Shown here: positions 12,432-15,144 of the stretch, in pieces
Numbering within the stretch: the first letter of the stretch is position 1
Layout: every line of letters begins with the position of its first letter
Virus record (IMG/VR): IMGVR_UViG_2551306035_000001
Span: 2,353 to 66,352 of that record
From: a virus
Lineage: Duplodnaviria; Caudoviricetes
Direction: 5' to 3' (one strand)
DNA: 64,000 nucleotides
Notes under the pieces: generated by a model
Told to the model about the DNA's origin: nothing
The model's database searches: none
The model's input: the letters and a program-made list of their open reading frames with translations, nothing else
Program-made: the position numbers and the translations under genes

Positions 12432-12583
12432 GCCATCACTGTCTAAATTAGCTGGCGAAAATGTACCATAGAGTGCATAAGTTGAGGCATGATTTCGATC
12501 GCATGAGAGGGCAAGTGGGGAGATATTGTTCAATTAAATGAATTTGTTGTGGGGTGAGAGTATTGGCTGCGTTTGGCAGCCAG
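12432..12583. repeat. Cassette-spacer repeat, copy 1
   Basis: gccatcactgtctaaa..aatgtacca..gtgcat..gaggcatgattt..ttgttcaattaaat..ggctgcgtttggcagcc. Confidence 0.85.
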
Positions 12584-12603
12584 TATGCATTTTATCCAAA
12601 GAG

Positions 12604-12828
12604 TCAGGCTACGATATCTTCTGGTCCCAAACTGCTACCACACTTAATACATGATGGGCGCATTCTTGAGATTAGTTCGTTCTCGCCATGATAATTACCT
12701 TTTGACGCTAAATTTCTCAAACTTGTTTTTGACCACTCTTGGGAGAAAGGCTGGTCATTTTCACTTTCTACAATTTCGCCAACTTGCCCGCAAGAGCATC
12801 TCAGTTTTGTGTAAGTCCGCATTGTCAT
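12604..12828 (-). CDS. Small putative Zn-binding protein
   Basis: CSC...CIKC; sole ORF between repeat copies 1 and 2. Confidence 0.6.
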   Translation of the reverse strand: MTMRTYTKLRCSCGQVGEIVESENDQPFSQEWSKTSLRNLASKGNYHGENELISRMRPSCIKCGSSLGPEDIVA

Positions 12829-12862
12829 TCTTTCGGCCCTGTTAAATTATCCGCCTCGAACT

Positions 12863-12982
12863 TACCATTAAGTGCATAAGGGGAGGCATGATTTAGATCG
12901 CATGAGAGGACGAGTGGGGAGATATTGTTCAAAGAAGTCAGATGGTTGTGAGGTAAGAGAATTGGCTGCGTTTGGCAGCCAG
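12863..12982. repeat. Cassette-spacer repeat, copy 2 (truncated on the left)
   Basis: gaggcatgatttagatcgcatgagaggacgagtggggagatattgttcaa and attggctgcgtttggcagccag nearly identical to copy 1. Confidence 0.85.
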
Positions 12983-13034
12983 AAAATGCTATTGCCTATT
13001 AACCGGAGAAAGGCTCATATGTGTTATGTAACCT

Positions 13035-13697
13035 CTACACGAGTCTTGTCATGGGGATGCTCGAACCATGAGCCATGCCATGCTTTCCTGTTGGAGTGTC
13101 GTCCACAATAAAGCCATATTTTTCAAAAAATGGAACAAGCGAAATATGTGCTGCTGTTAGACAAATTCTGTCCAAATTGTGCTCTTTACAATATGTAACA
13201 CAACGGTCGACTAACACCCCAAATAAATTGAGTCCACGAAATACTTGAAATTCAGACTGCCTCTCTGATGGCTTCATAGGCTCAAGTGGGTTAGAGAACT
13301 CAATATCGGATATATGTAGAATATTTTGATGTAATACTGCAATTAACAGTTCACTAAAATCTTTGTAATCTACGCTGCTATCATCCGTATTAGTATGGAT
13401 ATATAAAATATCTTTAATTACATCAGCACCTACAAAATTACTAACTTCTTTATATAAGTAGGGGTTGCCAGTTTGGAAGTGAATTGCAAGTGACATTGGA
13501 TCAACATCTAGATTAGTTTGTATATACTTATCCCAAATAGTTCCTCCCAATTCAAACATACAGTTCTCTTTTAATCCTACTATTTTTTCGATTTCGGATA
13601 ATCCATATTCTACAAATGAAATTTGACTTACTGGTAGTCTTTCACAGAGTAATTCTTTAGGGTAAATATCTATCAGATTCATAGTCTTTTCTTCCAT
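13035..13697 (-). CDS. Protein with C-terminal GNAT acetyltransferase-like domain
   Basis: FRGLNLFGVLVDRC..RICLTA..LVPFFEKYGF resembles GNAT motifs A/B. Confidence 0.55.
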   Translation of the reverse strand: MEEKTMNLIDIYPKELLCERLPVSQISFVEYGLSEIEKIVGLKENCMFELGGTIWDKYIQTNLDVDPMSLAIHFQTGNPYLYKEVSNFVGADVIKDILYIHTNTDDSSVDYKDFSELLIAVLHQNILHISDIEFSNPLEPMKPSERQSEFQVFRGLNLFGVLVDRCVTYCKEHNLDRICLTAAHISLVPFFEKYGFIVDDTPTGKHGMAHGSSIPMTRLV

Positions 13698-13751
13698 GTG
13701 ACATTAAATGTATAACAATACTTAATTTTGGTTATTACATAGCGAATGACA

Positions 13752-13966
13752 TGGATTTTCCCTCACGAGGATTAGCCCAAAGCTACCGCCCTTCGCCTAT
13801 CGGCACGCAACACGCCGTCACTGTCTAAATTTTCTGGCGAAAATGTACTACAAGGTGCATGATGAGAGGAATGATTTTGATCAAGATTGAGGTGCGAATA
13901 GTGAGGTTTTTTCAACTAAATTAGGCGGTTGAAGGTTGAGAGGAGTTGGCTGCGCGGGGCAGCCAG
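13752..13966. repeat. Cassette-spacer repeat, copy 3
   Basis: gcacgcaacacgccgtcactgtctaaa..aatgtacta..gtgcat..ggctgcgcggggcagcc. Confidence 0.8.
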
Positions 13967-14027
13967 AGAAAGGAGTGAATCCTAGTGCGAACAAGAGCAA
14001 AGATATCATCAACATGCTAAAGAAGTA

Positions 14028-14600
14028 CTAGTTAAAGTGGAAACCCTTAAATATTTCAGAAAATTGAAACTCTGGCAATGCGTTGTAATTAATTGATGAT
14101 AAGAACAGAACTACCCAAGCGCACAATAAAAAGATGCTAACTTTTATTGGAGCTCTTCCCACAGAAAAACCACCCAATATACATGCATTTGTTATTGATC
14201 GATTCTTACTACCGAGTAACCGCTCTCTAACTGTTCGATTCACGTCTTGGCTATTCACCGTGAACAATAAATGGGTGTCAATACCTTCTATTTTTTGTAG
14301 ATTATCACACAACTGTTGTTCAAAATGGTTAACGCGGCTTTCCCACCACTCTTGCCAATATTTAGCTCCAGATGACATTTGTAGTTGATAAATTGAAATC
14401 ATTATGCCAACCAGACAAATTATTATCTCAACAAACGGTTTGCTTGCTTCCGTTTGCATCACTGCAGCCAATAAAACACCTTGAAATAGCATAAAAAAGT
14501 TATTGCGTTGTATTAGTTGATTAATTTCAAAATTACGTGTTTCTATACTAATTTCGTACAATGATTTAAGTGTGTGTATATTTTTTGCTTCTGGTTGCAT
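14028..14600 (-). CDS. Membrane protein, RipA/octameric pore-former-like
   Basis: ETRNFEINQLIQRNNFFMLFQG motif followed by a TM hairpin and a C-terminal TM; family name from memory. Confidence 0.55.
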   Translation of the reverse strand: MQPEAKNIHTLKSLYEISIETRNFEINQLIQRNNFFMLFQGVLLAAVMQTEASKPFVEIIICLVGIMISIYQLQMSSGAKYWQEWWESRVNHFEQQLCDNLQKIEGIDTHLLFTVNSQDVNRTVRERLLGSKNRSITNACILGGFSVGRAPIKVSIFLLCAWVVLFLSSINYNALPEFQFSEIFKGFHFN

Positions 14601-14627
14601 AGAGCCTCAATTAATTTTCTAACAAAC

Positions 14628-14820
14628 TGGATTTCCCACGCTACGCTCTTTGCTTCTCTGCACGCAACACGCCATCGCTGTCTAAAACATTTGGAGAGAA
14701 TGTACCACAAAGTGCATAGGATGAGGCATGATTTAGTTCGCAGTTGTGGTTCGATTGGTGAGGTTTTGTTCAATTAAATTAGATGGTTGCAGGGTGAGAG
14801 GGTTGGTTGCTCTGATGCCG
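14628..14820. repeat. Cassette-spacer repeat, copy 4
   Basis: tggatttccc..gcacgcaacacgccatcgctgtctaaa..aatgtacca..gtgcat..gaggcatgattt..ttgttcaattaaatt. Confidence 0.8.
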
Positions 14821-15144
14821 CTAGATATTACTCCCAAAGATTTCCATCCAGAATGCAGCCCTAGCTTCTGGCAGGGTAATCAAGAGCCATAAGAAGCCGA
14901 AGAAAATACAGCTCAAACTGATCAAAATTAGTCTTGCCACTACTTTCCTACGGGCTTCGTTTTGCACATAGTACTTGGGAAAGAAAACGGAAATGCCTGA
15001 GAATTTGAGTAGAGTAGGAACGTTGCTCCCATACTGATGTAAACCAGACAGCCCAATCGCAGCTGCCAGGCCTGAAACAAAGCCGATAGCACATAGCCCA
15101 ATAAAGACATTCGCGACAAAATCCATGCTCATCAGGTATATCAC
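14821..15144 (-). CDS. Small membrane protein (2 TM)
   Basis: Two hydrophobic stretches; stop codon directly abuts repeat copy 4. Confidence 0.55.
   Translation of the reverse strand: MIYLMSMDFVANVFIGLCAIGFVSGLAAAIGLSGLHQYGSNVPTLLKFSGISVFFPKYYVQNEARRKVVARLILISLSCIFFGFLWLLITLPEARAAFWMEIFGSNI

Follow-up and report, generated by a model that had tools for sequence, protein, structure and literature searches.

A repeated element of a family with a conserved extended −10 and ops core precedes variable cargo genes in a Vibrionaceae provirus

The stretch of 64,000 nucleotides analysed here (the window) is part of a 66-kb lambdoid-type provirus record from Vibrionaceae (IMG/VR record IMGVR_UViG_2551306035_000001) and carries four direct copies of one intergenic element on the minus strand. 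The copies alternate with cargo genes that are mutually unrelated, AT-rich and likewise encoded on the minus strand, and the series ends at an operon of the Lamassu defence system. We propose, with moderate confidence, that each repeat is a portable module uniting a terminator, a promoter and an antitermination leader, which stands before a cargo unit and also supplies homology for crossover. The proposal builds on a repeat family with a common conservation profile, an ops core and a C-rich tract, on the presence of RfaH in genomes of sister-element hosts, and on variable cargo with breakpoints at the modules.

According to this model, a rut-like tract would end the transcripts coming from the upstream unit, and a sigma-70 promoter of the extended −10 type would restart transcription. 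The ops core on the non-template strand would then pause RNA polymerase and load the NusG paralog RfaH, and RfaH in turn would shield the transcription of the foreign, AT-rich cargo against Rho and against silencing by H-NS. Since the same ~185 nt flanks unrelated cargo, the module would act as portable homology, and homologous recombination between modules, either ordinary or assisted by the phage annealase, could swap, add and delete cargo units.

Repeat copies and their parts

The copies were placed with an nhmmer profile built from eight copies of the family; no fifth copy is found in the 64 kb window by this profile even at E ≤ 10. Their positions and parts are as follows.

14643–14825, minus strand: module copy 4, before the 8xMP-family gene (nhmmer 175 bits); eroded hairpin 14805–14822, C-rich tract 14729–14806, extended −10 14699–14707
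13783–13968, minus strand: module copy 3, before the GNAT-like gene (nhmmer 174 bits); hairpin 13948–13964, C-rich tract 13866–13943, −10 13842–13847 with no upstream TG
12837–12983, minus strand: module copy 2, before the 74-aa Zn-ribbon gene (nhmmer 135 bits, profile positions 3–150 only); hairpin 12964–12980, C-rich tract 12888–12965, extended −10 12859–12867 with a weaker hexamer
12413–12584, minus strand: module copy 1, before the Lamassu operon (nhmmer 160 bits); hairpin 12565–12581, C-rich tract 12489–12566, extended −10 12460–12468

Four direct minus-strand repeats had been placed here by an earlier reading of the same DNA (the original prediction), and the profile search and the repeat comparison bear this out; the core motif given in that prediction occurs four times, against 0.04 occurrences expected from shuffled sequences. 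Pairwise identity is 82% between copies 1 and 2 (140 nt) and 75% between copies 3 and 4 (124 nt).

The family consensus is 186 nt long and consists, on the cargo strand, of a 6-bp GC hairpin, a C-rich tract of ~80 nt, an A-rich stretch with the extended −10, and a leader of ~60 nt. When the 178 nine-nucleotide windows of the profile are ranked by information, the ops core block (positions 178–186) comes first and the extended −10 (positions 118–126) second. The −10-like hexamers begin at 12460, 12859, 13842 and 14699, with the upstream TG missing only in copy 3, exactly as predicted, and the expectation that the extended −10 is conserved is borne out by its place as one of the two best 9-mers of the family. 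This promoter part is kept in all four window copies, and we take it for a putative sigma-70 promoter that would restart transcription ahead of each cargo unit.

Upstream of the −10, the composition of the element is unusual. In 6.4 kb of the minus strand (9000–15400), the 78-nt windows in which C exceeds G with C/(G + 1) ≥ 2.5 fall only in the 5′ halves of the four copies, whose tracts hold 26–28 C and 5 G per 78 nt (C = 28 and G = 5 in copy 4). The bias is also found across the 31 long-form copies of the family, with a median of 25 C and 6 G, and a C-rich, G-poor tract of this kind is a candidate Rho loading (rut) site.

The hairpin shows one compensatory double change and G-U-compatible changes between copies. 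As predicted, it is intact in copies 1–3 and eroded in copy 4; its position just after a stop codon does not always hold, the distance being 0 to ~65 nt. The view of the element as a portable unit of hairpin and promoter stands in so far as there is a family repeat with a conserved extended −10, but the hairpin has no U-tract and is not a clear intrinsic terminator. A scan for intrinsic terminators called two of the hairpins, those of copy 1 (plus strand) and copy 2 (minus strand), with a total no higher than in shuffles, and intrinsic termination was rejected on these grounds.

The 5′ ends of the element are ragged, and long and short forms occur. One subfamily (window 13735–13782 and copies in loci L055 and L043) carries an extra ~45 nt past ops, consisting of a small hairpin with a compensatory change and then a short conserved stretch. 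This extension is fused to unrelated genes, indicating that the junction between module and cargo is not always at ops.

Several other identities of the element were considered and rejected. Most copies fit the GG/GC −24/−12 spacing of a sigma-54 promoter, but two break these bases while keeping a small hairpin; no enhancer-binding protein gene was seen near the element. For sigma-28, a −10-like octamer is present in about half of the copies and no −35 was found by eye on the alignment, and a sigma-E promoter based on the conserved block upstream would need a −10 that the copies do not conserve. A leader peptide was dismissed on the grounds that several copies disrupt its consensus 11-codon frame, whether by a stop, by loss of the start or by a frameshift, and CI operators on the grounds that the cI–cro intergenic region is, by eye, not similar to the module. 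Matching of window 9000–18000 against Rfam gave nothing relevant at E ≤ 1.

The ops core and host RfaH

The best-conserved block of the profile, positions 178–186, corresponds to positions 1–9 of ops, an RNA polymerase pause and RfaH recruitment site in which positions 3–8 are needed for recruitment and positions 11–12 for the pause (PMC5995543, our source for which bases matter). Positions 3–8 are intact in 33 of the 56 family copies; a sister copy with an intact core lies at L010:9079-9257. Among the 47 copies whose ops-like block could be aligned, 40 have T at position 11. The block starts ~52 nt after the last base of the extended −10 (profile position 178 versus 126), and the first open reading frame (ORF) begins 1–296 nt past it; ops thus lies in the leader between the putative promoter and the gene.

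The Rfam family JUMPstart (RF01707) aligns to the ops part of two copies with 19.5 and 21.5 bits; the Rfam comparison of window 9000–18000 gave no match to it at E ≤ 1. As a control, we used a host's own polysaccharide-operon leader, which is flanked by rfaH and a dTDP-glucose dehydratase-like gene and shares its extended context with the module; it scores 22.1 bits. The family consensus resembles JUMPstart/ops leaders (RF01707; PMC5995543, PMC7593976) both in this context and in having a sense-strand ops core in the leader between a promoter, putative in the module, and AT-rich acquired genes. RfaH is known to act on long operons for polysaccharides, toxins and conjugation, most of which have a single leader (PMC5995543, PMC7593976), whereas the module leader belongs to a multi-copy repeat that precedes short defence units of prophages.

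The hosts of sister elements encode RfaH. The proteins of two of them (G001 and G081) score 222–227 bits on the NCBIfam equivalog NF006534, and that of G001 matches E. coli RfaH with E 2e-48, the ops-contacting residues K10, R16, H20, R23 and R73 being all conserved. RfaH was found in 350 of the 401 sampled genomes, and no NusG-family protein is encoded by the prophage.

Within the window, the picture is more uneven. Only copy 3 has an intact ops core (13779–13790), and in copy 4 the core of the ops-like block (14637–14648) has a one-base deletion. The leader of copy 1 has diverged to a different hairpin, and its ops-like block (12412–12423) has three mismatches, one of them at an RfaH-contact base; copy 2 stops ~20 nt past the −10, so that the leader and the ops part are missing. 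With only one usable core, one core with a deletion and two lost, the RfaH step would hold for the family and for at most one or two window units, and it may be an ancestral family property that survives in only one unit here.

It should be noted that several results weigh against the proposal. The full 12-nt ops consensus is present in only 5 of the 56 copies, and position 12 is G in only 10 of the 47 alignable ones, so that the pause should be weakened. The JUMPstart scores are below the RF01707 gathering score of 35 bits, although the host's own leader also falls short of it, which makes this threshold uninformative in these genomes. These two features also distinguish the module from known JUMPstart/ops leaders, and the RfaH dependence of the modules is a prediction from sequence. 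Three of the four window copies have no usable ops core, and one of these precedes the 3.3-kb Lamassu operon, the unit for which antitermination would be most important. The C-rich tract agrees with the description of a rut site (~80 nt, C-rich, G-poor, unstructured, past a stop codon) in composition only; no −35 is conserved, and a simple promoter scan does not call the −10 sites. Finally, a spacer hexamer upstream of the −10 and a block at about +8 to +20 are highly conserved but fall outside the model; in profile coordinates, the strongly conserved blocks that neither sigma-70 nor ops accounts for are positions 106–114 and 141–159.

Some of these results would suit a simpler explanation, namely that the repeats are a shared constitutive promoter (a duplicated moron promoter), with ops, leader and C-rich tract as inherited baggage and recombination as an accidental by-product. 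The four window copies keep the −10 region while the ops core is lost in three of them, any activity of copy 2 would have to do without a leader, and ops position 12 is mostly not G. However, the ops core block is the best-conserved 9-mer, above the −10, and the C-rich bias is kept in the 31 long-form copies from many genomes. Neither is expected of neutral baggage at 70–80% overall identity, and we consider a promoter alone to be an unlikely description of the element.

Alternatively, the leader and spacer blocks could be the target of another trans-acting factor, such as a repressor or activator, a third, UpxY-like NusG paralog or a small RNA, with ops in a secondary role. In favour of such a factor are the conserved blocks 106–114 and 141–159, which lie outside sigma-70 and ops, the third NusG-family paralog in each host, and a small leader hairpin with a few compensatory changes. 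On the other hand, RNAalifold finds almost no conserved structure (−1.8 kcal/mol, four pairs), no candidate regulator is encoded next to the arrays, and it is the ops-matching block that is best conserved and matches the context of the host's bona fide ops. We therefore regard a different factor as quite improbable and retain the module with an RfaH-loading leader as our preferred interpretation.

Two side observations concern RfaH and ops in the host genomes. The third NusG-family paralog, besides NusG and RfaH, was seen in the four hosts checked (L074:1270-1845; G001:C38:755135-755410), and the paralog scanned in G081 is UpxY-like, below the cut-off. Exact ops 12-mers are present at G001:C38:455698-455709 and G073:C1:2263232-2263243, in both genomes antisense at the 3′ end of an integron integrase gene, and were read as a coincidence of the coding sequence.

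Cargo exchange and distribution of the family

The array occupies a slot between a Q-like late antiterminator gene and an orphan umuD-like gene. In sister prophages, the umuD-like protein is 97–99% identical and the same slot holds quite different genes; the Q-gene side is 80–89% identical (DNA or proteins) in the two sister prophages that reach it. Breakpoints were located in three pairwise comparisons among prophages sharing the umuD-like gene (L010, L048 and L059). Between L010 and L059, homology ends at 3271 and 9579, with module 3′ ends at 3268 and 9582; between L010 and L048 it ends mid-module, and between L048 and L059 at the module 3′ end. Past the breakpoints the genes differ, and the two ATPases found there share only the P-loop stretch. 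These comparisons of sequences support the predicted role of the modules as borders of exchangeable cargo units.

The original prediction had explained the closest pairs, copies 1/2 and 3/4, by successive acquisitions. The pair identities hold, but a tree built from 50 copies groups window copy 3, and likewise copy 4, with copies of other genomes; being closer to foreign copies than to each other, they indicate that the array did not arise by simple successive local duplication. Units seem to arrive together with their module, or modules to recombine between elements. The phage annealase that could assist such exchange is Erf-like and not, as had been thought, Rad52/Sak-like.

One cargo unit also has a counterpart outside module arrays. 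The unit 13022–13734 (713 nt) is 93% identical in another Vibrionaceae genome, G338 (L077, G338:C1:2087266-2090978), where it is followed by a 127-nt repeat present in 13 copies in four clusters. Two of the four clusters adjoin integron integrase genes, one intact and one broken, indicating that the 127-nt repeat is an attC family. To judge from these sequences, integron cassette pools and module arrays seem to exchange cargo with one another. In the window, just the first few bases of the attC-type repeat are kept before the module starts.

The shared unit, the strict alternation of repeat and gene and the sharp 3′ boundary of the repeat could suggest that the repeats themselves are site-specific recombination sites, attC-like or of another cassette system, and that cargo moves as circles. 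However, the element has no R''/R' core-site pairs on either strand and no element-wide imperfect palindrome, with fold z-scores of −2.0 to +1.3. The genes seen beside the window array include no recombinase of the tyrosine or serine type, and intI is distant from the modules in the hosts, by 230 kb in G001 and likewise far away in G073. In addition, some breakpoints fall mid-repeat, as in homologous exchange, and the 5′ boundary is ragged, since both long and short forms exist. An attC identity was rejected on the lack of core sites and of an adjacent integrase, and site-specific movement in general is very improbable; the exclusion of attC and Rfam families proposed earlier thus held in our searches.

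It is also hardly credible that the repeats derive from a short mobile element that cannot move by itself, such as a miniature inverted-repeat transposable element (MITE) or the end of an insertion sequence, with an outward promoter. Such an origin would agree with multiple copies dispersed over several loci per genome and with short and long forms. Against it, no terminal inverted repeats were found: apart from the 6-bp hairpin, the copies contain no inverted repeat, which together with the ragged 5′ ends led us to reject a MITE or insertion sequence end. No target duplications were noticed in the flanks read, which were not searched systematically. All copies point the same way with respect to the gene that follows, and they lie only before accessory cargo and never inside genes. 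Nor was there any blastn match, with two different copies as queries, in the GenBank phage collection or the PLSDB plasmids. Exchange by homology between modules thus remains our preferred explanation of the variable cargo.

A search of Vibrionaceae genomes with family copies, as the original prediction had suggested, found the element in 21 of the 401 sampled species genomes, and each of five genomes checked in full contains 3–9 copies at several loci. The loci comprise the same prophage slot (L042, L048 and L051), one Mu-like prophage and sites by housekeeping genes, with gnd, an ABC-F ATPase gene and AraC-type regulator genes as neighbours of the chromosomal copies. Exact-pattern scans of IMG/VR returned only a sister provirus of Enterovibrio norvegicus, one chance match and one further provirus.

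The provirus of E. norvegicus FF-33 has the same slot, with a umuD-like protein 99% identical and a Q-side flank 80% identical to those of the window. A profile search of the fetched loci gave at least six element copies in this provirus, with further weak matches just outside L010. The cargo of its slot differs from that of the window and includes an OLD/Gabija-like ATPase, a DUF4145 protein and others; by BLAST of the whole 5.2-Mb genome, the element occurs only in the prophage array.

Elsewhere, modules are followed by two more Lamassu systems, SIR2-HerA, Ppl, OLD-like and AAA_21 ATPases, DUF4145 proteins and many unknowns. The genes downstream of modules are usually defence systems, in agreement with the predicted defence hotspot. 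A class A beta-lactamase gene (L049:9021-9911, G081:C22) lies directly behind a short-form module with an intact ops core, indicating that the family also fronts non-defence accessory genes. The ops-core leader, the C-rich rut-like tract and the occurrence of the family outside prophages had been missed by the original prediction.

From this distribution, a broader hypothesis can be put forward tentatively: the element might be a Vibrionaceae-wide "plug-in adaptor" of ~185 nt that combines Rho insulation, a promoter, an ops/RfaH licence against silencing and exchange homology, and through which prophages, chromosomal hotspots and integron-derived cassettes would trade defence cargo. We hold this joint claim to be possible and would not yet call it probable. 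If it is true, host RfaH would be a master switch of part of the antiphage immune repertoire.

If the module model holds, AT-rich defence genes would escape Rho and H-NS silencing by arriving behind a ready promoter and an RfaH-loading leader, and defence hotspots could turn over fast without a dedicated recombinase, with the shared module as the crossover point. Mutants in rfaH are commonly selected for phage resistance through the loss of lipopolysaccharide or capsule; under the model, such mutants would also lower the expression of intracellular defences, which amounts to a trade-off. No link between RfaH and defence cargo was found in the searched literature, and no paper there names both RfaH and Lamassu; the papers naming RfaH together with antiphage terms give, in their titles and abstracts, no link of RfaH to defence-gene expression.

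Comparison with known systems and the provirus setting

By analogy, the closest functional counterpart of the module is the promoter-early stem-loop (PeSL) motif of T4-like phages (Comeau, Arbiol and Krisch 2014, PMC4122927). PeSL motifs are small repeats of a promoter and a stem-loop between unrelated genes in hyperplastic regions, where they are points of homologous exchange through which related phages swap cargo; the module, likewise, is a composite repeat between variable genes, with junctions at or in the repeats in three comparisons. The analogy is functional only, without a relation in sequence. The module is found in temperate lambdoid prophages and chromosomal islands and PeSL in lytic T4-like phages, and the module is longer (~185 nt), has a stem-loop that is not a U-tract terminator, and adds the rut-like tract and the ops leader.

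In layout, the array is similar to an integron, with alternating repeats and genes, a single orientation, variable content, and one cargo unit shared with an attC-bearing unit. In mechanism it appears to differ: there is no attC architecture and no adjacent integrase, each unit has its own promoter-like element instead of a common Pc, and the exchange looks homologous.

Lambdoid morons are genes with their own promoter and terminator that are expressed from the prophage. The cargo resembles them in consisting of accessory genes between Q and the lysis genes, with their own promoter-like element and a GC content off that of the backbone (33–38% in the cargo versus 44–51% in the phage backbone). 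Classical morons are not known to share a single flanking repeat or to carry an antitermination site. The cargo, placed between the Q-like and lysis genes, runs against the direction of late transcription; this fits expression in the lysogen, which is probable for these genes.

The provirus encodes a CI-like repressor, a Cro-like protein, an O-like initiator, NinB, a Q-like antiterminator and the Erf-like annealase. The cargo and the borders of the slot are as follows.

15251–15739, plus strand: conserved right border, with the orphan umuD-like S24 peptidase gene at 15332–15739 (Pfam PF00717, PHROG 811)
14821–15144, minus strand: first cargo gene, encoding a 107-aa predicted membrane protein (ORF list); no module upstream, adjoining the divergent promoter region of the umuD-like gene
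14028–14600, minus strand: 190-aa gene of the 8xMP (octameric membrane protein) family (Pfam PF24838, E 3.9e-24)
13022–13734, minus strand: cargo unit with a 220-aa weak GNAT-like gene, ORF 13035–13697 (Pfam PF13673)
12604–12828, minus strand: 74-aa Zn-ribbon-like gene with two Cys pairs (ORF list; cysteines read from the frame)
9100–12411, minus strand: Lamassu (ABC-3C) operon, comprising LmuA with CTD6 (11365–12411), an MC2 middle component (10944–11375) and LmuB (9100–10944)
8183–8968, plus strand: Q-like late antiterminator gene, conserved left border of the slot (PHROG 127 and 17382)

The gene order given in the original prediction is right, but the gene called RipA-like belongs to the 8xMP family, and the GNAT assignment is weak, the score of 23.3 bits on PF13673 being just under the Pfam cut-off of 23.6. 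The Lamassu operon at the end of the array is confirmed by Pfam (PF20282 and PF20288), by PADLOC (LmuA 1.6e-87, LmuB 8.7e-134) and by the MC2 component. Neither the 107-aa membrane protein nor the 74-aa Zn-ribbon-like protein has a match in Pfam, PADLOC or NCBIfam.

On the Q side, the homology with sister prophages stops at ~8840 according to blastn boundaries. On the opposite side, the umuD-like gene has a LexA box at 15308–15323 and is not accompanied by umuC. Its DNA is 91–94% identical between prophages (protein 97–99%), as compared with ~80% DNA identity in the Q-side flank, and together with the sister loci (L010:1061-1556, L048:7423-7948, L051:8317-8826) it forms a sharp conserved border of the slot.

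Beyond the umuD-like gene, the minus strand of window 15850–20030 holds three more AT-rich genes, none of them preceded by a module. Two of these have no family match, and the third, possibly another defence gene, encodes a UvrD-like helicase of 968 aa that carries Zn ribbons of the topoisomerase type as well as a weak nuclease-like insert.

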